Part shown: positions 55,632 to 64,000 of the stretch, piece after piece
How the letters are laid out: each line of letters opens with the position of its first letter
Numbering within the stretch: position 1 is the first letter of the stretch
From: Thermoanaerobaculales bacterium
GTDB lineage: Bacteria > Acidobacteriota > Thermoanaerobaculia > Thermoanaerobaculales > Sulfomarinibacteraceae
Direction of reading: 5' to 3'
Length of the DNA stretch: 64,000 nucleotides
Assembly: GCA_035358815.1 (NCBI GenBank)
Contig: DAOPQC010000009.1
Location: 2,405-66,404, forward strand
Translations under genes and position numbers: made by a program
The notes under the pieces: generated by a model
Database searches by the model: none
Told to the model about the DNA's origin: nothing
The model's input: the letters and a program-made list of their open reading frames with translations, nothing else

Positions 55632-55660
55632 TTGACAGTCTCGGCAAAGCTTTCTACCAT
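55632..55660 (+). promoter_or_regulatory. Candidate sigma-70 promoter for the tRNA-Val/tRNA-Asp pair
   Basis: TTGACA (55632-37), a 17-nt spacer, then TACCAT (55655-60), ~25 nt upstream of tRNA-Val. Confidence 0.5.
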
Positions 55661-55684: not shown

Positions 55685-55759
55685 GGGAGGTTAGCTCAGG
55701 GGTAGAGCACCTGCCTTACACGCAGGGAGTCGTGGGTTCAAATCCCCCACCTCCCACCA
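55685..55759 (+). tRNA. tRNA-Val (anticodon TAC)
   Basis: Cloverleaf: acceptor gggaggt/acctccc, D-arm gctcaggggtagagc, anticodon stem cctgc/gcagg with loop ctTACac, T-arm gtggg-ttcaaat-cccac region, encoded CCA. Confidence 0.9.
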
Positions 55760-55780: not shown

Positions 55781-55857
55781 GGGGTCGTAGTTCAGCTGGT
55801 TAGAACGCCGGCCTGTCACGCCGGAGGTCGAGGGTTCGAGTCCCTTCGGCCCCGCCA
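55781..55857 (+). tRNA. tRNA-Asp (anticodon GTC)
   Basis: Acceptor ggggtcg/cggcccc, D-arm gttcagctggttagaac, anticodon stem ccggc/gccgg with loop ctGTCac, T-arm gaggg-ttcgagt-ccctt, discriminator G, encoded CCA. Confidence 0.9.
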
Positions 55858-55872
55858 ACCCAGCCAAACCGA

Positions 55873-55900
55873 GCCGCCCTTCGGGCGGCTTTTCGTTTGT
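55873..55900 (+). terminator. Rho-independent terminator after tRNA-Asp
   Basis: gccgccc-ttc(g)-gggcggc followed by ttttcgtttgt. Confidence 0.75.
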
Positions 55901-56006
55901 CTGGTGGCGGGGCCGAAGGGACTCGGTCACCGCGGAGCCAGCGGGCGGACGTACGCCGCCCACCGCCCTCTCCGGCCCGGCTGACGCCGGGCCTGCGACC
56001 CCCACG
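55886..56006. repeat. 121-nt direct repeat, copy 1 (contains inverted copy of tRNA-Asp 3' end)
   Basis: Base-for-base identical to 56234-56354 (checked by eye over all 121 nt). 55905-55925, tggcggggccgaagggactcg, is the reverse complement of tRNA-Asp 55837-55857. Confidence 0.95.
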
Positions 56007-56078
56007 GCTACGTCCGCACTCCGCTGCCTATCGCGGTGTGCAAGTCCCTTCCCTCGTGACCCCGGCGACCCTGGCGGG

Positions 56079-56130
56079 CGGCTGTTTTCGTTCCGTGGCG
56101 GGGCCTTCGGGACTCGCAGCACCGTCACCT
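56079..56130. repeat. Degenerate middle copy of the tRNA-Asp-derived repeat
   Basis: cggctgttttcgttccgtggcggggccttcgggactcg matches the start of the 121-nt unit, with gaag replaced by ttcg and a different continuation. Confidence 0.7.
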
Positions 56131-56233
56131 GCGCGCTGTCACGGGCAGCCCGCGTTGCGGCCTGCCGGTTCCAGCCTGCGCAGCTGCCGGCGGTGTCGAG
56201 CCCTTCCCTCGTGACCCCGGCGACCCTGGCGGT

Positions 56234-56354
56234 CGGCTTTTCGTTTGTCTGGTGGCGGGGCCGAAGGGACTCGGTCACCGCGGAGCCAGCGGGCGGACGT
56301 ACGCCGCCCACCGCCCTCTCCGGCCCGGCTGACGCCGGGCCTGCGACCCCCACG
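56234..56354. repeat. 121-nt direct repeat, copy 2
   Basis: Identical to 55886-56006 at an offset of 348 nt. Preceded by the 32-nt block 56201-56232, identical to 56046-56077. Confidence 0.95.
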
Positions 56355-56579
56355 CCCTCTGAAACTGCGAATGTGTCCATGTCGGCCCCGGCACGCAATT
56401 GGCGCGAAGGCCCCAGCGATCCACAGGGTCAAGAATCACCGGGTGCGCGAACGCGGCGCAGACCTCCGCCCAAGCCTCCGCACGCACGATCGGGGTCCTC
56501 CTCAACTGTCCGTTCACGGTGTGAGGTCGAGATACCTGAGAATCTCACACTTCAGCCAGACACTCCTTCTGGGGGTGCC

Positions 56580-56939
56580 TCAGGGCTCGCGGCGGAGGCC
56601 GAGCTGGATCGAGATCGCGCGGTCGAGGGCTTCGAGCTCGCCGGCTTCGAGGAGGCCAAGGCGCTTGCTGATGCGGTGCCGGGCAACCGTGCGAAGCTGG
56701 TTGGCGACCGCACGGGAGGGCTTGGCGAGGCCGCTCGACGTCGGGCCGACGCGGCTTTCGTAGGGTCGGAGGGGGCGGTCGGGCAGCGATGTCACGGGCA
56801 CGATCTGGAGCACCGCGTCGAGCCGGCAGGCGACGTCGTTCGAGACGACGACCGCCGGGCGGGTCTTCCGGATCTCTCGACCCTCTGCCGGGTCGAAGCG
56901 GACCAGGACGACGTCGCCTCGGCGGAGCTCGGGGGTCAC
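56580..56939 (-). CDS. mazF: Type II toxin, PemK/MazF-family endoribonuclease
   Basis: RGDVVLVRFDPAEGREIRKTRPAVVVS... and the QIVPVTS pattern. The GTG start overlaps the antitoxin stop (GTGA). Confidence 0.8.
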   Translation of the reverse strand: MTPELRRGDVVLVRFDPAEGREIRKTRPAVVVSNDVACRLDAVLQIVPVTSLPDRPLRPYESRVGPTSSGLAKPSRAVANQLRTVARHRISKRLGLLEAGELEALDRAISIQLGLRREP

Positions 56940-57178
56940 TCGTCGACCTCCGCGTCAGCCGCTTCCCACTCGGCGGCCAGCTCTGCCGCTTCGTCCCGGT
57001 CCTCGGTGTACGCCACCTCGAGCTGTCGCTCGAGCAGCCGGGCGCGGTACTCGCGGACCGCCTCGCACACGACGGCACTGGTGTTCGGGACCTCGTACAA
57101 GAACGTCGCCACATCAGGGTCGACCGTCACGGTGATGCGCTTCTTGCCCACTGCCGGATCCTCCGGTGAGATGATCAT
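56936..57178 (-). CDS. Putative MazE-like/RHH antitoxin
   Basis: 80-aa acidic-tailed protein (KKRITVTVDPDVATFLYE... then a DE-rich C-terminus) translationally coupled to mazF. Start ATG 57178 is uncertain. Confidence 0.6.
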   Translation of the reverse strand: MIISPEDPAVGKKRITVTVDPDVATFLYEVPNTSAVVCEAVREYRARLLERQLEVAYTEDRDEAAELAAEWEAADAEVDE

Positions 57179-57343
57179 AGCATACGAAATGTCATATGAA
57201 CAATACGCACACTGCGATTCCAGCGACGCCATCTGTCCGCCGGCGGGATCGAATGTGAATCGTGGCTGAGGTTCGGCCGGACGGTGGAATGGTCCGAGGC
57301 CGGTACAATGGCCGGGTTTCGAGCCCGTCGTATCGGAGAGGAC

Positions 57344-58837
57344 ATGGAGAAGACCGGTTTCCTGCGCTCGTTCCCCCGCACCTTCTGGGTCGCCAACGTC
57401 ATGGAGCTGTTCGAGCGGGCCGCCTACTACGGCCTCAACTCGGTGTTGGCTGTCTACCTCACGTTGAAGGTCGCCGAGGGCGGGCTCGGGTTCGGCCAGC
57501 AGGCGGTCGGCTTCCTGCAGGGGATCGTCTATGCCGCCACTTACGTGCTGCCGATCCTCGGCGGCGCGCTCGCCGACCGTTACGGCTACCGCAAGATGCT
57601 GATCGTCGCCTTCTCCTTGCTGGCGACCGGTTACTTCGCCGCCGGCCACATGTCGAGCTACGCCCTGGTGTTCCTGTCGCTGCTCGTGATGGCGACCGGC
57701 TCGGGACTGTTCAAGCCGATCATCTCGGGGACCATCGCCCGCACCACCAACGAGAAGACGTCCTCGTTCGGGTTCGGCATCTACTACTGGATGATCAACC
57801 TCGGCGCCTTCCTGGCGCCGCTGGTGGTGAGCTGGCTCAAGGGGTTCTCGTGGCGGTACGTGTTCACCGCCTCGGCGGCCTACTGCGCGGCGATGCTGCT
57901 GCCCGCCCTGTTCGTCTACACCGAGCCGCCGAAGCCGGAGAGCCGCAAGACCTTGAAGGAGGTGCTCGGCGGCGCCGCCGAGGTGCTGGGCGATGCCCGC
58001 TTCATGCTCATGATCGTGGTCTACTCCGGGTTCTGGATCCTCTACTTCCAGAACTTCGGGTCGGTGCTGTGGTACCTGCGCGACTTCGTCGACCGCGAGC
58101 CGGTGAGCGCCGCGGTGACCGGGTTGCTCGCCGCGATCGGGCTCGACGTCCGCTTCACCTTTGACGCCGAGCACGTCACCGTCATCAACGCCGGCACCAT
58201 CATCCTGCTCCAGGTGCTGGTGAGCCGCCTGGTCGCCAACCGCAAGGCGCTGCCGACCATGGTGACCGGCATGGCGATGGGAGCCGTGGGCTTCGTTCTG
58301 CTCGCGAGCTCCTTCAACCCGTGGGTGTTCATCCTCGGCATCGCGGTGTTCTCGATCGGCGAGATGACCGCCCACCCCAAGTACTACAGCTTCGTCGGGC
58401 TGGTGGCGCCCGCCGACCGCAAGGCGGTCTACATGGGCTACGCCTTCCTCTACGGCGTGTTCGGCTCGTTGCTCGGCTCGAACCTCGGCGCCTTCCTCTA
58501 CGAGCGGATGCTGGCCCCGGTGGTCGGGACCGAGGCGGCGGCCGGCCGCACCACCCTGTTCTGGACCTTGTTCGCCGTGCTCGACGTGATCGCAGTGGTG
58601 GGGCTGATCCTGTTTGCGCGGGCCTTCGGCGAGGACACCCCCGACACCCGGCGACGGGCGCGCAGCGCCATGTTCGGCGTCTACGGGCTGATCCTGCTGC
58701 TCGGCCTCGCATTCGCAGTCTTCGCCTTCACCTCGGACCCGATCCAGGTCCGCACTGCGGTGCAGTCCCTGATCTTCCTCGCCCTGGGCGGCGGCGGGCT
58801 CGCGGTGAACGCCCGCGGCGGTCGCAGCGCGAGCTGA
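57344..58837 (+). CDS. Proton-dependent oligopeptide transporter (POT/PTR2) family MFS
   Basis: ATG 57344 follows ggagagg. Signature ELFERAAYYG (ExxERFxYY). GGALADRYGYRK. 12-14 TM profile. Confidence 0.85.
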   Translation: MEKTGFLRSFPRTFWVANVMELFERAAYYGLNSVLAVYLTLKVAEGGLGFGQQAVGFLQGIVYAATYVLPILGGALADRYGYRKMLIVAFSLLATGYFAAGHMSSYALVFLSLLVMATGSGLFKPIISGTIARTTNEKTSSFGFGIYYWMINLGAFLAPLVVSWLKGFSWRYVFTASAAYCAAMLLPALFVYTEPPKPESRKTLKEVLGGAAEVLGDARFMLMIVVYSGFWILYFQNFGSVLWYLRDFVDREPVSAAVTGLLAAIGLDVRFTFDAEHVTVINAGTIILLQVLVSRLVANRKALPTMVTGMAMGAVGFVLLASSFNPWVFILGIAVFSIGEMTAHPKYYSFVGLVAPADRKAVYMGYAFLYGVFGSLLGSNLGAFLYERMLAPVVGTEAAAGRTTLFWTLFAVLDVIAVVGLILFARAFGEDTPDTRRRARSAMFGVYGLILLLGLAFAVFAFTSDPIQVRTAVQSLIFLALGGGGLAVNARGGRSAS

Positions 58838-59025
58838 GAGAGCGGGTCACGCGTGCTCACCCGAGCTCGGAACGATGGCGCCCAGCGGGGAGAGCGGCGC
58901 CGCCGGGAATGGCCGGTCGCCGAGGGCTGGTTGAGTGAGCGATGAGAAGTCGTCGCGATCGCCCCGCGTGGTCCGATCCCGACGTCGACCTCCCACCCGC
59001 CCCGGGTGGCCCATCGAGGACGTGA

Positions 59026-59382
59026 ATGGTCGAGCCGCAGCAAACAGCGCACGACGCCCGCCCGGCGCCCCGCCGCCTCGCGCTCCTCGCGCTGGCGGTG
59101 GTGATGGCCGGGCTTGTCGCTGCAGCTCCGTACTGGGGCGCGAGCGCCGCGCACGCGGAGGAAACCGAGGCGACGCCCTGCCCCGACCCGGGGGATGACG
59201 GCTCGCCTTGCGGTCCGAGCTGCCCGTGCGCCTGCTGCCCCGGGCATGCGCCGACTCCGGCGGTGGTGGTCGCGCAGTGCTCGGTCGCCGCCCCGTCGCC
59301 GAGCACGCTCGAGACCACTCCCCACAGGGCCCTGCAGTCGACGGACCTTCGTCTCCGCATCTTCCACCCTCCTCGCACCTGA
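59026..59382 (+). CDS. Small exported Cys-rich protein (possible metal-binding accessory of the czc operon)
   Basis: Signal/TM segment LALLALAVVMAGLVAAA, then CPDPGDDGSPCGPSCPCACCPGH (7 Cys + His in 23 aa). Coding status is not proven. Confidence 0.45.
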   Translation: MVEPQQTAHDARPAPRRLALLALAVVMAGLVAAAPYWGASAAHAEETEATPCPDPGDDGSPCGPSCPCACCPGHAPTPAVVVAQCSVAAPSPSTLETTPHRALQSTDLRLRIFHPPRT

Positions 59383-59487
59383 CCTCGAATCGACAGCTGG
59401 GTTCGGTCCGCTCGCGGCGCGCGAGCTGCCCGAGTTGGCGTTTCTGACGCCCATACATGGGCGTCGTGGGAAGGCAGGTGTTCGACG

Positions 59488-60795
59488 ATGTGGTGCCCTC
59501 GTACGCGCGCCCCTCGCTGGCGGCGCACTCAGATCGCTTTGGTCGCCCTGCTGGTGGCCGGTTCGGTGGCGGCTCGCTCGGTGCCGGCGGAGACCGAGAC
59601 TTCGGCTTCAGGGAAGGGACTGCCGGCCGGCCAGGTGATCAGGGTGAGCTGGCCGGAGCTGGTCCGCCTAGTCGACCAGCACCCGCTGGTCGCCGCCGGC
59701 GCCTTCGGCATCGACGCCGCCCGCGGAGCGGTCACCGCCGCCGGCGCCGCCCCCAACCCCTCGCTCGCGGCAACCGCCGGCCGGGGAGAGGCGGTGGTCG
59801 GGGACGAGTCCGACGACGAGTGGGCGCTGGAGCTGGAGCTTCCGCTCGGCTGGCTCGCCCTGCGCGGCTCGCGGGTGGCGGCCGCCGAGGCCGATCTCGA
59901 GGCCACCGAGGCCGAGAGCGAGCTGCTGCGGCGGGAGGTCCTGCTCGAGCTCAGGACCCTGTTCTGGAGCCTGGTCTCCGAGCAGGAGCGGGTCGCCGCG
60001 CTCGAGGCGCTCGAGCAGCAGACCGCGGCGCTGGTGGCCACGGTCCGGAAGCGGGTCGAGGTCGGCGAGGTCCGGCCGGTGGACGGCCCGCGGTCGGAGA
60101 TCGAGCTCGAGAAGGTCGCCGCCGAGCTCGCGGCGGCGCACGTCGCGCTCGGGGCGCGCCAGGCGCAGCTCGCGCTGTGGCTGGCTCCCCCGGCGGAGGG
60201 CACCATCGTGGCGGTGGGAGATCTCGGCGCGCTGCCGCATGCGATCGACCTCGACGCCGCGCGAGCGAGGCTGCGCGCCTCTCACCCGGCGCCGGCGGCC
60301 GCCCAGGCGCGTATCCGCTCGCTCGAGGCCACGCTCGCGACCGAGAAGCGGGCGCGGATCCCGGACTTCTCGCTGGCCGCGTTCCAGTCCCACGAGCTCG
60401 ACCGGGACGCATACGGTATCGGCCTCACCGTGGGTCTGCCGCTCCTGAGCTGGAACGGCGGCCGGATTGCGCAGGCCGAGGCCGAGCTCGAGGCCGGCCG
60501 GCTCGAGGCCGAGGCCGTGAGCCGGGAGCTCGAATCCAGGGTCATCGAGGCCGAAGCGGCGTGCCGCGCCGCGGTCGAGACCGCGGCCCGCTTCGGCAGC
60601 GCCGTGGTCCCGCGCTCCGAGGCCGCGGCCGCGACCATGGAGCGGACCTACGAGCTCGGCGAGGCCAGCCTGCTCGAGCTGATCGACGCCCGCCGCACCC
60701 TGCTCGACACGCGCCGGCTGCACCTCGGCGCGCTCGCCGCGGCCCAGATCGAGTGCAGTCGTCTCGGCAGCCTGGTCGGAGAGGAGATCCCATGA
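59488..60795 (+). CDS. czcC: TolC-like outer-membrane efflux protein (CzcC family)
   Basis: Signal peptide. Two OEP-type coiled-coil repeats. Directly coupled (ATGA overlap) to the adaptor gene. Confidence 0.75.
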   Translation: MWCPRTRAPRWRRTQIALVALLVAGSVAARSVPAETETSASGKGLPAGQVIRVSWPELVRLVDQHPLVAAGAFGIDAARGAVTAAGAAPNPSLAATAGRGEAVVGDESDDEWALELELPLGWLALRGSRVAAAEADLEATEAESELLRREVLLELRTLFWSLVSEQERVAALEALEQQTAALVATVRKRVEVGEVRPVDGPRSEIELEKVAAELAAAHVALGARQAQLALWLAPPAEGTIVAVGDLGALPHAIDLDAARARLRASHPAPAAAQARIRSLEATLATEKRARIPDFSLAAFQSHELDRDAYGIGLTVGLPLLSWNGGRIAQAEAELEAGRLEAEAVSRELESRVIEAEAACRAAVETAARFGSAVVPRSEAAAATMERTYELGEASLLELIDARRTLLDTRRLHLGALAAAQIECSRLGSLVGEEIP

Positions 60796-62141
60796 GCAGC
60801 CACAGCATCCTTCGCGCCCTCGCGGTCCTGGCCCTGACCCTCGCCTGGGCGGCATGCGGCAGGGGCGAGTCGCAGGCGCCCGGGGCCGCAGCCCAGGCGC
60901 CGCCGGTCGAGCAGGCACTCGCCGGGCGCGGCGCCGCCGCAGGCGTCGAGCACGAGGCCGAACCCGAGGAGCCCTCTGACCTCGACCGGCCGGTCGACGA
61001 GCTGTTCCGCGCGGCCTGCGAGCACGGACGGCAGACCTTCGCCTGCGACGAGTGCCGCTGGGAGGTCGGGGTCGTCCGGGTGCCGGCGAGCCTGGTCGAC
61101 GGCGGGCTCGTCGAGACCGCCGGGGTGGGACGCCGGGCGATCGCGGTCCCCCTGACCCTGACCGGCGAGGTCCGCTTCGACGAGCGCCGGGTCGCTCACT
61201 GCAGCTCCCAGGTCGAGGGGATCATCCGCGCGGTGCACGTCGCGCCCGGCGACATGGTCCGGCGCGGGCAGCCCCTGCTCGAGATCGAGTCGGTGGTGGT
61301 CGGCGAGGCGCAGGCAGCCTACCTCGAGGCCCGCGGCCTGCTCGACATCGCGCGCCGCAACTTCGAGCGGGTGTCGGCGCTCAAGCAGGAGGCCATCGCC
61401 TCGGAGAAGGAGTACCTGCAGGCGAGACAGGAGCTGGAGGCGGCCGAGATCCGGTCGGAGGGCGCGCTGGGCACGCTTTCGCGGCTCGGCGCGGGCGCCG
61501 GCGAGGCGGGCCCCAACGCTGGCGGCAACGCCCGCGGCCGTTTCGTGCTGCGCGCCCCGGCGTCGGGCACCGTGCTCACGATGCACGCGGTCCCGGGCGA
61601 GGTGGCCAGGACCGAGGAGTCGCTGGTGACGGTCGGCGACAGCTCGACGGTCTGGGTGTGGGCCGACCTCTACGAGCGCGACATCGCCGCGGTCAGCCGG
61701 GCGCACGCGGCGCAGCCGCTCGCCGCCGCCGTCGCCGTGAAGGCGTACCCCGGCGAGCAGTTCCCGGGCGTCGTCGACCTGATCAGCCCGGCGATGGACG
61801 AGTCCTCGCGAACGGTGAAGGTGCGGGTCGCGGTCGCGAACCCCGATCGCCGGCTGCTGGCCGGGATGTTCGCCTCGGTCGAGGTTTTCCTGCCGGGCTC
61901 GCAGGAGGTGCTCGCCGTCCCGCGGGAGGCGCTGCTCGAGGACGAGGGGCGGTCGTTCGTCTTCGTCCACCATCACGACGACTACTTCGTGCGCCGCCCG
62001 GTCGAGGCGGGACGCACCTGGGACCGGTGGATCGAGGTGACTTCGGGGCTCGAGGCGGGCCAGACCGTGGTCGCCGAGGGCGCCTTTCTCCTGAAGTCGG
62101 ACGTGCTGCGCTCGAAGATGGGCGCCGGGTGCGCGGACTGA
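60792..62141 (+). CDS. czcB: RND efflux periplasmic adaptor (HlyD/CzcB family)
   Basis: Lipoprotein signal LTLAWAACG. Lipoyl/beta-barrel motifs (GIIRAVHVAPGDMVRRGQPLLEIES, FVLRAPASGTV, VKVRVAVANPDRRLLAGMF). N-terminal CxxxxxxxCxxC motif. Confidence 0.8.
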   Translation: MSSHSILRALAVLALTLAWAACGRGESQAPGAAAQAPPVEQALAGRGAAAGVEHEAEPEEPSDLDRPVDELFRAACEHGRQTFACDECRWEVGVVRVPASLVDGGLVETAGVGRRAIAVPLTLTGEVRFDERRVAHCSSQVEGIIRAVHVAPGDMVRRGQPLLEIESVVVGEAQAAYLEARGLLDIARRNFERVSALKQEAIASEKEYLQARQELEAAEIRSEGALGTLSRLGAGAGEAGPNAGGNARGRFVLRAPASGTVLTMHAVPGEVARTEESLVTVGDSSTVWVWADLYERDIAAVSRAHAAQPLAAAVAVKAYPGEQFPGVVDLISPAMDESSRTVKVRVAVANPDRRLLAGMFASVEVFLPGSQEVLAVPREALLEDEGRSFVFVHHHDDYFVRRPVEAGRTWDRWIEVTSGLEAGQTVVAEGAFLLKSDVLRSKMGAGCAD

Positions 62142-62155
62142 AAGGGGAGGACGCC

Positions 62156-64000
62156 ATGAAGCTCGCGACCTTCCTGCTCGGCAACCGCTTTCTCGTGCTG
62201 CTCGCCTCGGCGATGCTGATCGCGGGCGGCGTCGTCGCGTGGCTGCACCTGCCGATCGACGCCTTCCCCGATGTGACCAACACCCAGGTCATGATCCTCT
62301 CGACCGCGCCCGGCCTCGCCGCCGTCGACGTCGAGCAGCGGGTGAGCTACCCGATCGAGCAGGTGATGCGCGGCCTGCCCCGGGTGACGGAGGTGCGCTC
62401 ACTGTCGAGGGCCGGCCTGTCCCAGGTCGTCATCGTCTTCGAGGACGGCGCCGACACCTACTGGACGCGGCAGGTGGTGTTCGAGCGCCTCGCCATGGCC
62501 CGGGAGCAGCTCCCGCCCGGCGTCGAGCCCGAGCTCGGCCCGATCTCGACCGGCCTCGGGGAGATCTTCCAGTACACCCTGGAAGGGGACGGCGCGAGCG
62601 CGATGGAGCTGCGGACCATCCAGGACTGGCTCGTCGCCCCGCTGCTCGAGCCGATCCCGGGGGTCAACGAGGTCAACAGCTTCGGCGGCGAGGTCAAGCA
62701 GTACCAGGTGCTGGTGTCACCGGAGAAGCTCGTCAAGTACGGCCTCAACGTCAACGACGTCGTCGAGGCGGTCGAGCAGGGCAACGCCAACGCCGGGGGT
62801 GGCGTGGTGGTGCGCGGATGGGAGCAGCTCTACCTGCGCGGCGTCGGCCTGCTCGAGGACATCCCGGACATCGAGCGCATCGTGCTCCGGGCCGAGGACG
62901 GCGCGCCGATCTACCTGCGCGACGTCGCCGAGGTCGTCATCGGCGCCGAGCCGCGCCAGGGCGCGGTGAGCCGCGACGGCAGCGGCGAGGTCGTGGCCGG
63001 CATGATCATCATGCTCAAGGGCGAAAACTCGAAGGAGGTGGTCAGCCGGGTCAAGGAGGCGATCGAGAGGATCCGCTCGATCCTCCCGGAGGGGGTCCGG
63101 ATCAACGTCTTCTACGACCGCACCTCGCTGATCGAGGCCTGCATCTCAACCGTGGTCAACGCCCTGCTCGAGGGCGGGATCTTCGTCATCCTGGTGCTGT
63201 TCCTGTTCGTCGCCGAGCTGCGGACCTCGCTGATCGTGGTCTTCTCGCTGCCGTTCACCTTCCTGGTCAGCTTCATCGTCATGGGCGCGACGGGGTTGAC
63301 GTCGAACCTGATGAGCGTCGGCGGCCTCGCGTTCTCGGTCGGCATGGTGGTCGACGCGTCGATCGTGGTGGTCGAGAACATCCGGCGCCACCTCGCGCAG
63401 CGGCCCGCGGGCGAGCACCGGCGCCGCATCGTGGCCGACGCCCTGGCCGAGGTGGCGAGGCCGGTCGGCTTCTCGGTGGTCATCATCGCCATCATCCTGG
63501 TGCCGCTGTTCACGCTGCAGGGGATCGAGGGCAAGATGTTCGCGCCGCTCGCCGCGACCATGCTGATCGCGCTCCTGGTCTCGCTGGTCGTGGCGCTGAC
63601 CGTCGTGCCGGTGCTGTCGGAGATGTTCCTGAAGGAGGGCCCCGAGAAGGAGTTCTCCTTCATCCGGCGCTTCCACCGCGGCTACCTGCGGCTCCTCGAC
63701 CGCGCCGTCCGCCGGCCGGGCGTGACCCTCGGCCTCTCGGGCGCCGTGCTGGTGGCGTCGCTGGCGCTGCTGCCCCTGGTCGGCACCGAGTTCATGCCGC
63801 CGCTCGACGAGGGCTCGATCGCGATCAACGTCGTACGCCTGCCCAACGCCTCCCTCGACGGCTCGGTGAAGGTCGCGACGTTCATCGAGGAGCGCCTGCG
63901 CGCGTTCCCGGAGGTCGGGACCGTGGTCAGCAAGACCGGCCGCGCCGAGATCTCCGAGGACCCGATGGGCCCCGAGCAGACCGACGTCTTCATCATGCTC
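62156..64000 (+). CDS. czcA: Heavy-metal-efflux RND inner-membrane pump (CzcA/CusA family), 3' end beyond the window
   Basis: Not in the ORF track because there is no stop before the window end. ATG 62156 follows aaggggagg. MKLATFLLGNRFLVLLASAMLIAGGVVAWLHLPIDAFPDVTNTQVMILS... The frame is open for 615 codons to base 64000. Confidence 0.85.
   Translation, partial: MKLATFLLGNRFLVLLASAMLIAGGVVAWLHLPIDAFPDVTNTQVMILSTAPGLAAVDVEQRVSYPIEQVMRGLPRVTEVRSLSRAGLSQVVIVFEDGADTYWTRQVVFERLAMAREQLPPGVEPELGPISTGLGEIFQYTLEGDGASAMELRTIQDWLVAPLLEPIPGVNEVNSFGGEVKQYQVLVSPEKLVKYGLNVNDVVEAVEQGNANAGGGVVVRGWEQLYLRGVGLLEDIPDIERIVLRAEDGAPIYLRDVAEVVIGAEPRQGAVSRDGSGEVVAGMIIMLKGENSKEVVSRVKEAIERIRSILPEGVRINVFYDRTSLIEACISTVVNALLEGGIFVILVLFLFVAELRTSLIVVFSLPFTFLVSFIVMGATGLTSNLMSVGGLAFSVGMVVDASIVVVENIRRHLAQRPAGEHRRRIVADALAEVARPVGFSVVIIAIILVPLFTLQGIEGKMFAPLAATMLIALLVSLVVALTVVPVLSEMFLKEGPEKEFSFIRRFHRGYLRLLDRAVRRPGVTLGLSGAVLVASLALLPLVGTEFMPPLDEGSIAINVVRLPNASLDGSVKVATFIEERLRAFPEVGTVVSKTGRAEISEDPMGPEQTDVFIML

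Follow-up and report, generated by a model that had tools for sequence, protein, structure and literature searches.

Why should the last bases of a tRNA gene be repeated, inverted and without a single mismatch, just beyond the terminator of the same gene? The 3' ends of tRNA genes are classic landing sites of mobile DNA, and the islands known to occupy them are kilobases long and encode an integrase of their own. The question is raised here by a 64,000-nt stretch of a Thermoanaerobaculales bacterium genome (contig DAOPQC010000009.1, positions 2,405 to 66,404; hereafter the window). A reading based on the sequence alone (the sequence-only reading) had noticed the complementarity downstream of tRNA-Asp and had proposed either a duplex in read-through transcripts or a scar of recombination at the tRNA attachment (att) site. 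We found that the inverted copy caps a gene-less minus-strand element, here called E, which is convergent with tRNA-Asp and has a core of about 130 nt (about 165 nt including its tRNA-derived arms). Our preferred interpretation, to which we assign roughly an even chance of being right, is that E is a non-autonomous insertion element or mini-island entering tRNA genes at the T loop, and that the inverted copy is the basal stem of the element extended into the duplicated tRNA end.

The tRNA-Asp(GTC) gene, with an encoded CCA, occupies positions 55781-55857 (+) of the window (ARAGORN; Rfam tRNA, 71.3 bits). Its final 21 nt (55837-55857; CGAGTCCCTTCGGCCCCGCCA), from C56 of the T loop to A76 of the encoded CCA, form the left arm of the pair, and the reverse complement of these bases lies at 55905-55925 (-), with 21/21 matches and 47 nt between the arms, as the sequence-only reading had claimed. 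The intrinsic terminator that it had placed between the arms was likewise recovered by a terminator scan. The spacer (55858-55904, +) is an imperfect palindrome that contains the terminator of the tRNA operon, with a stem-loop at 55871-55891 followed by a T tract to about 55901; this layout is kept in relatives, but the sequence differs. Spacer palindrome included, positions 55835-55930 fold into a single hairpin of about 95 nt (fold of 55781-55935: -98.3 kcal/mol, z = -7.4). The pair was thus correctly described but only part of what is present, since further copies, the palindromic nature of the spacer and a direct repeat of 125 nt (55882-56006 and 56230-56354, with 121 nt 100% identical) had been overlooked. 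With up to three mismatches allowed, the window contains four occurrences of the 21-mer, against 0.01 expected from shuffles: in tRNA-Asp itself, at 55905-55925 and 56253-56273 (both perfect) and at 56096-56116 (three mismatches, GAA to TTC).

The inverted 21-mer at 55905-55925 constitutes the minus-strand 3'-terminal arm of the first of three E copies arranged in tandem at 55905-56354. A covariance model (R1), built from 76 copies and run unfiltered over all 64 kb, recovered these three copies, all on the minus strand, with no other credible match. Copy a (55927-56054, -) is of the long form and full length (R1 120.1 bits, E-value 4e-26), is also matched by nhmmer, and is supported by structure and covariation. 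Its parts are the outer stem S1, the CAGCGG/CCGCTG helix, the GCGGACGTAGCC/GGCGTACGTCCGC helix, a G-rich internal loop (GGGGGTCGCAG ... CCGGAGAGGG) and the apical hairpin P1. The outer arm of copy a is a degenerate direct copy of the tRNA-Asp 3' end (GTGCAAGTCCCTTC[CCTCGTGA]CCCCGGCGA; 56038-56068, +; repeats D8, I7 and I8), which pairs with 55905-55925 in the fold of the whole unit and whose counterpart at another locus, L020, is a perfect 21-mer (L numbers denote loci retrieved from other genomes or metagenomes by pattern scans). Copy b (56096-56210, -) is degenerate and combines the inverted variant at 56096-56116 with a diverged, partly deleted body (R1 18.3 bits, E-value 0.035 at 56117-56210); the copy closest to the tRNA in L028 and L074 has this same TTC variant. 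Copy c (56253-56354, -) is a short form without the upstream arm, composed of the perfect inverted 21-mer (56253-56273) and a core (R1 42.6 bits at 56275-56385; nhmmer model positions 72-171). It is located inside the 125-nt direct repeat, 348 nt from copy a, of which it is a recent local duplicate.

Read along the tRNA strand, unit a presents the tRNA end, the terminator, the inverted end and body a; unit b a degenerate direct copy, half a terminator, the variant inverted end and body b; and unit c a degenerate direct copy, a terminator remnant, the inverted end and body c. The half terminator (56069-56095, +) was read from the sequence within repeat D3 (56046-56086, similar to 56201-56241) and retains only the right half and the T tract of a second terminator. 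The degenerate direct tRNA-end copy of unit b (56196-56224) and a third terminator-like remnant together span 56196-56252 (+; repeat D3; terminator-like site at 56221-56235). The distal direct tRNA-end copies in the window are decaying, and no open reading frame (ORF) fits the E units of 180-350 nt. Tandem arrays of E were also found elsewhere, with at least four copies in L039+L054 and three in L029+L060.

Comparing the regions downstream of tRNA-Asp in related genomes, a check that the sequence-only reading had proposed, revealed that the inverted arm recurs. A scan for the 21-mer, with one genome per species, yielded 61 loci, of which 7 present a +/- pair 38-52 nt apart, all in metagenome-assembled genomes (MAGs) labelled Acidobacteriota, Holophagae or Thermoanaerobaculia. 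At these seven loci the inverted copy is the 3' end of one conserved sequence on the strand opposite the tRNA. When up to five mismatches are allowed 38-52 nt past tRNA-Asp, the inverted arm is present at 19 of 23 distinct high-GC loci (10 perfect) and at 0 of 29 low-GC loci of other lineages with an identical tRNA end. One and the same conserved body follows it in every case. In roughly half of the species the inverted arm has 1-5 mismatches, for none of which the tRNA shows a compensating change, and the encoded CCA is mutated in several species. Between the window and most of these genomes, the syntenic 380-aa neighbour protein shares only 45-51% identity (71% with the closest, L028), and the neighbours on the E side of tRNA-Asp vary. 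E is nonetheless alignable across these genomes (mean column identity of 72%) while terminators and spacers differ, which indicates that E is under constraint or continually renewed. The inverted arm is far better conserved than the distal direct copy; the distal arm of the Asp type scores 6-10 of 21.

Variation in the inverted arm (window 56096-56116; L028, L074, L025 and L156) is almost restricted to three bases and the CCA complement. The three bases are TTC in the tRNA sense and GAA or GGA in the variants, and the change from TTC to GAA is what reverse-complementing the loop of a CC-NNN-GG mini-hairpin would give. At another locus (L144:92-168, +), a tRNA identical to tRNA-Asp except for the anticodon GAC instead of GTC (tRNA-Val according to ARAGORN) has the usual E behind it; this tRNA could be a tRNA-Asp with a mutated anticodon, or the difference could stem from an error in sequencing or assembly.

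The conserved body forms a long hairpin. From base to tip, E presents an outer stem S1/S1' of variable sequence, the CAGCGG/CCGCTG helix, a bulged GTGGCCGTAGCC/GGCGTACGGCCAC helix, an internal loop and P1. The internal loop is large, highly conserved and G-rich (GGGGGTCGCAG on the 5' side and CCGGAGAGGGGG..GGG on the 3' side), and the apical hairpin P1 is free in sequence and length and covaries. Across 76 distinct E copies, 88.4% of the cells form standard pairs compared with 34-40% when the partners are slid, 27 of the 46 pairs have changed on both sides, and compensatory cells number 272 against 82 ± 8 in shuffles. On the element strand, G-U/U-G combinations outnumber A-C/C-A combinations (112 vs 47), and this strand is about 5-20 kcal/mol more stable than its complement in 18 of 19 units. 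The excess of G-U together with this folding bias indicates that selection acts on one single strand, either RNA or single-stranded DNA. The length of E ranges from 105 to 165 nt, and the variation in helix length does not follow multiples of three. The hairpin covers nearly the whole unit, which amounts to terminal inverted repeats without coding capacity.

The internal loop is lined on its two sides (for example window 55968-56003 and 55952-55975, minus strand) by near-invariant G runs (GGGGG, GGAGAGGGGG and GGG), and could conceivably form a G-quadruplex on the element strand or offer a platform there for a protein to bind. A further covariation links columns 58 and 157 of alignment A2, where the base after CCGT on the 5' arm (A, G or T) varies with the bulged base of GGC[N]TAC on the 3' arm. 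The combinations observed are A with G, G with C and T with T, which is not simple Watson-Crick pairing and may reflect a non-canonical pair or sub-family ancestry.

E is not specific to tRNA-Asp. Scanning metagenomes with a pattern of the E body only, with the tRNA-like end excluded, returned 103 loci, most of which carry E, and more than 30 metagenome loci have E within 170 nt of a tRNA gene. The metagenomes that yielded L062-L164 are from wetlands or sediments. The tRNAs concerned are Leu (three isoacceptors), Ala, Pro, Arg, Lys, Val and Asp, and E is downstream of and convergent with the tRNA in all the adjacent cases listed. The body is constant across tRNA types and the flanks differ. 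On its distal (5') side, E is flanked by TGG and then by the local tRNA 3' end in reverse complement. Seen from the tRNA strand, this flank repeats 16-24 nt of the tRNA in direct orientation, starting in the T loop and stopping at CCA(+1), some 180-220 nt further down. Among 109 long-form copies, 42 have a 5' flank that matches a known tRNA 3' end in reverse complement, and all the junctions fall in the T loop, at tRNA positions ~53-58. At Leu, Arg and Lys loci, E splits a second, partial tRNA copy at the T loop and there is no inverted arm. The Leu-type junction is exactly in the T loop (GCGTGGGGGTT, then E, then CGAGTCCCCCCTTTCGCACCA), as illustrated by L071, where GCGTGGGGGTT, E and CGAGTCCCCCCTTTCGCACCAA follow one another 31 nt past the real tRNA-Leu. 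At L140, E is found within a tRNA-Leu 3' fragment of about 50 nt with no intact gene nearby; excising E in silico from this locus restores only the ~50-nt 3' fragment and no complete tRNA.

Asp, Ala and Pro loci share a different arrangement, in which the tRNA-side flank is the reverse complement of the tRNA end and lies past a palindromic terminator spacer. Behind the tRNA-Ala of L066, a 21/21 inverted copy is located 41 nt downstream with a terminator between, and the tRNA-Pro genes of L117, L138 and L150 present the same inverted geometry as tRNA-Asp. The suggestion of a recombination scar at the tRNA 3' end is therefore borne out in one respect, since direct tRNA-end copies from the T loop to CCA(+1) bound E at Leu, Pro, Arg, Ala and Lys. 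It does not account for the window itself, where the copy is inverted, unlike a classical att scar, and caps a conserved structured element of about 130 nt rather than a bare scar. Other copies of E are found away from tRNA genes; these are intergenic, lack tRNA-derived flanks and lie beside unrelated genes, and one E sub-family occupies at least five different non-tRNA loci in metagenome contigs. As far as sampled, the family is confined to high-GC Acidobacteriota-type genomes (Thermoanaerobaculia, Holophagae or Acidobacteriota MAGs).

Many of the non-tRNA copies (e.g. L091:9612-9722, L064 and L112) end in an extra 3' hairpin with a GNAG loop (CCGCGAAGCGG, GCGCGCGCAGCGCGCG and GCGGCCGTAGGCCGC) followed by GCGAAC, a tail whose reverse complement (GTTCGC) resembles the start of a T loop. 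Complex arrays (L126:966-1245, L079, L111:484-941 and L133) include a second E deeper in the same tRNA-Pro-derived fragment and, behind one tRNA-Leu, three different E sub-families in tandem.

How could such an arrangement arise? The T loop and the T/acceptor junction are recognised crossover sites of tRNA-targeting tyrosine integrases, the accepted sublocations being these two and the anticodon loop, and integration regenerates the gene and leaves a displaced 3' fragment in direct orientation (PMC4383910). The junctions of E and the direct tRNA-end copies match this geometry of integrase insertion, and the fixed orientation is the one expected if insertion is site-specific and depends on orientation, which leads us to read E as mobilised in trans. 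A recombinase acting in trans would insert E in a single orientation into the T loop of a tRNA gene, or of the 3' fragment displaced from one, as with the tyrosine-integrase islands that regenerate the tRNA and leave a displaced 3' fragment. At Asp, Ala and Pro, the tRNA-side flank would have been turned into the reverse complement of the distal flank, probably through template switching on the hairpin, and the basal stem would have gained 17-21 bp of tRNA end. The extended arm and the real tRNA end would together make a palindrome of ~100 nt centred on the terminator. Because the inverted arm is better conserved than the distal direct copy, its identity to the tRNA may be kept by conversion or template switching in the palindrome, or by use of the arm as a recombination site. 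Arrays would grow by local tandem duplication (compare the 348-nt spacing of copies a and c), and E would have no role in the expression of tRNA-Asp.

The likeness of E to tRNA-gene islands made by tyrosine integrases (PMC4383910) extends to the intact tRNA gene, the copy of its 3' end at the far side, the tandem arrays at one tRNA and the accessory genes just beyond the element (toxin-antitoxin pairs, Cas3). A displaced direct 3' fragment is present in the window (56038-56068 and 56196-56224) and in relatives, as is the T-loop junction; the inverted copy departs from the first of these features. Unlike such islands, E is an insert of only ~180-350 nt with no integrase or other gene, its copy is inverted at tRNA-Asp, its hairpin is shared between tRNA targets, and the Leu-type E splits a second, partial tRNA copy.

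Several results weigh against the view that E is a mobile insertion. The inverted tRNA-end copy is not a product of integrase chemistry, and the extension of the palindrome is an added assumption. No recombinase or transposase partner was apparent, with only 2 of 146 E-flanking proteins carrying Phage_integrase (PF00589), no recurrent transposase family, no integrase among the window ORFs scanned, and no recombinase or transposase within 8 kb in the window. No empty site or insertion polymorphism was seen among the loci compared. The non-tRNA copies have no flanking direct repeats of at least 11 nt, and the possible repeats of 6-8 nt in 2-3 of 8 aligned copies are unconvincing. E occupies a single locus in the 64-kb window, and it is absent from viral contigs and PLSDB plasmids, which led us to reject a phage or plasmid origin. 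Moreover, each tRNA type is associated with an E sub-family of its own, and the Asp-linked E has remained intact across deeply diverged genomes, a pattern that resembles long residence under selection more than it does a recent selfish spread. Old, intact copies and one sub-family per tRNA fit a host or RNA function equally well, and this makes such a function a serious rival.

It is possible, although we consider it unlikely, that E works as a structured RNA, either as a minus-strand transcript or as a cis-acting module in neighbouring transcripts, and that its tRNA-derived ends matter as RNA. The element could, for instance, mimic the 3' strand of an acceptor/T arm ending in CCA for tRNA-end enzymes or toxins, or its 5' antisense segment could serve as a guide or primer-binding site. 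The strong covariation, the conserved nucleotides of the internal loop in otherwise very variable helices, and the bias of G-U pairs and folding energy to the element strand all favour an RNA, as does the retention of E where neighbour proteins are only 45-51% identical. In addition, the Asp-type GGGGTCG can pair with CGGCCCC into an acceptor-like stem. Primer-binding sites of retroviruses and long terminal repeat (LTR) retroelements start with TGG and can pair with the final 17-21 nt of one particular tRNA; the 5' flank of E, with TGG and 14-21 nt complementary to the tRNA 3' end, is similar. Unlike these sites, E presents no reverse transcriptase, LTRs or other retroelement features, and the Asp-type antisense arm decays freely (6-10 of 21), which weakens a role as guide or primer. 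The encoded CCA is moreover mutated in several species, and neither a reverse transcriptase nor any other partner gene recurs. An acceptor-strand mimic is contradicted by GGGGGTCGCAG, which is unchanged whatever tRNA adjoins. The promoter scan found no minus-strand promoter-like site upstream of any of the three window copies, the upstream flanks of the non-tRNA copies contain no conserved or AT-rich box, and the T tract of the terminator is good only in the tRNA direction.

Specific identities of this kind were searched for and rejected. Rfam scans (E-value up to 1) of the window and six other loci gave nothing on the element strand, leaving no known RNA family, and ARAGORN called only tRNA-Val and tRNA-Asp in the examined region, with no tRNA, tmRNA or Y-RNA match on E. 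A promoter belonging to E itself was discarded for the window minus strand. A tRNA-like minus-strand fold (acceptor GGGGTCG/CGGCCCC, no D arm, a hairpin inserted into the T loop) looked promising in the window and in RNAalifold but was abandoned, since GGGGGTCGCAG is constant beside Leu, Ala, Pro, Arg and Lys tRNAs despite their differing acceptor strands and the pairing is broken in two Asp-linked copies (L043 and L009). A riboswitch or gene-specific leader was dismissed because the genes downstream of E are unrelated; judged by sequence, they are HMG-CoA-synthase-like, CysE, LolE-like, GcvT, TsaB, FumA, NikR and YceI-like. Clustering the 146 neighbours all against all, with Pfam annotation, yielded no conserved partner gene, only synteny groups and PIN (5), PemK (2) and Phage_integrase (2) domains, and no RAYT or reverse transcriptase was among them.

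A mobile alternative, which we regard as improbable, is that a single-stranded circle folds so that the tRNA end pairs with its inverted copy and thereby creates a duplex attachment site. E would then be a new type of gene-less mobile unit of ~200 nt, integrated repeatedly as a folded single strand by a tRNA-specific recombinase, with the paired arms acting as a duplex mimic of the tRNA 3' end between the terminator and E hairpins. Such a rod-shaped circle would parasitise tRNA-specific integrases and pile up behind tRNA genes, and the G-rich loop would be the handle for the enzyme. Comparable folds exist, as in the attP(+) of CTX phage and the attC sites of integrons, whose inverted arms fold into a duplex recombination site. 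E resembles these in its 21-nt arms 38-52 nt apart, a feature of the Asp, Ala and Pro types only, and in its stable fold, tandem units and compensated structure. The arms are perfect or near-perfect and better kept than the distal direct copy, the succession of tRNA end, terminator hairpin, inverted end and E hairpin would fold into a rod, and the tandem arrays and single-strand pairing bias are also in agreement. However, the inverted arm is missing from the Leu, Arg and Lys versions, no recombinase is linked to E, neither a circular form nor an empty site was observed, and copy c of the window is not an older insertion but was duplicated locally, and recently, from copy a. Unlike CTX attP(+) and attC, E has no XerCD or IntI context and no R/L boxes, and its arms are identical to a tRNA 3' end.

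The inverted copy could also be a neutral scar, left by one integrase event or by an inverted duplication of tRNA-Asp across the terminator, with no element and no function; we hold this to be highly improbable. Direct scars of the tRNA-Asp end do exist without E, in a 90-nt-period array of a Thermoanaerobaculia MAG (L011:1-340) and 262-326 nt apart in two Bacteriovoracaceae MAGs (L035 and L038), and the distal direct copies of the window are decaying. However, the inverted copy and the body are retained at 19 of 23 high-GC loci despite deep divergence, the body is under compensatory evolution, and it is also found beside six other types of tRNA and at loci away from tRNAs. Its similarity to tRNA-Asp is no better than that of shuffled controls: descent of the apical part of E from this tRNA was rejected in the same way, as its alignments do not exceed shuffles (P = 0.03-0.56) and the best match is usually another tRNA. 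The reading as a bare scar is thus largely refuted. Finally, the other proposal of the sequence-only reading, that in a transcript reading through the terminator a 21-bp duplex would sequester the 3' half of the tRNA and compete with the cloverleaf (or, in a variant of the idea, make a processing site), has very little to recommend it beyond the stability that this RNA would have (-98 kcal/mol, z = -7.4), given the good canonical terminator ahead of the inverted arm, a conserved unit ~130 nt longer than required, the Leu, Arg and Lys versions without the arm, the arm mismatches never compensated in the tRNA, and the copies away from tRNAs.

The interpretation of E as a non-autonomous insertion also invites comparison with the small repeats of other bacteria. 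ERIC/IRU of enterobacteria and Correia/NEMIS of Neisseria are gene-less, imperfect palindromes of ~100-150 nt over nearly their full length, found between genes at multiple loci. E resembles these repeats, which are of the miniature inverted-repeat transposable element (MITE) type, in all these respects and also in having half-length forms, in being conserved between species and in the lack of a linked transposase. It differs by its preference for the T-loop position of tRNA 3' ends, its fixed orientation, its asymmetric, highly conserved G-rich internal loop and its freely covarying apical hairpin, and no short target duplication was demonstrated. REP sequences are palindromic units of 20-40 nt tagged by GTAG or CGTC, which are paired in inverted orientation in REPINs (PMC3733652). 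E shares with REP, REPIN and BIME repeats (PMC3733652, PMC8049555) an inverted-repeat hairpin, singlets as well as clusters with alternating orientation and linkers, long vertical persistence, and absence from plasmids and phages. In contrast to REP and REPIN, the arms of E (GCAGCGG...GTGGCCGTAGCC and GGCGTACGGCCAC CCGCTGG) pair with each other and are not self-palindromic, the tag varies (GTAG, GTGG or GTTG), and no copy was found to have a RAYT nearby. PMC3733652 and PMC8049555 do not list an association with tRNA ends among the features of REP/REPIN. E therefore lacks at least one defining feature of each of the islands, MITEs, REPINs and foldback att sites. We rate it as a miniature structured repeat targeted to tRNA 3' ends, for which we found no description in Rfam, and the literature searched describes no tRNA-linked repeat of this kind.

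What E represents has consequences beyond this locus. A structured, gene-less unit of ~130 nt, outside Rfam, is found at the T-loop position behind at least 6-7 tRNA species, forms arrays, and is intact across deeply diverged Acidobacteriota. If mobile, E would be a new type of miniature tRNA-targeting element, which could mislead island-finding software and the annotation of tRNA genes and may mark hot spots of toxin-antitoxin or defence genes. If it is instead an RNA with a host function, E would be a new multi-copy class of non-coding RNA linked to tRNA loci. The covariance model and about 100 examples of E are available for direct testing on genomes and transcriptomes.

Upstream of the array, tRNA-Asp is preceded by tRNA-Val(TAC) at 55685-55759 (+; ARAGORN; Rfam tRNA, 67.9 bits), the first gene of the tRNA pair, itself preceded by a promoter-like TTGACA-17-TACCAT at 55632-55660. 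Searching for an island boundary on the other side, we found no more tRNA-Asp-end copies in 56400-64000, even at 4 mismatches in 17. Just past the array, and not belonging to E, lies a mazE-like/mazF toxin-antitoxin pair (56580-57170, -), defined by a PemK/MazF Pfam match (E-value 9e-23 for 56580-56939) and an antitoxin-like ORF. This pair looks like an insertion, because L028 seems to run from the array straight into an MFS/POT transporter gene. It is preceded by an AT-rich stretch at about 57150-57200, in a window of 71% GC. Toxin-antitoxin and defence genes recur at E/tRNA loci (e.g. L117, L132, L136, L062, L090, L075, L158, L016 and L025), among them a nucleotidyltransferase/HEPN-type pair at L016, by the look of its sequence, and a Cas3-like gene at L025, which suggests that these sites are hot spots for accessory DNA.

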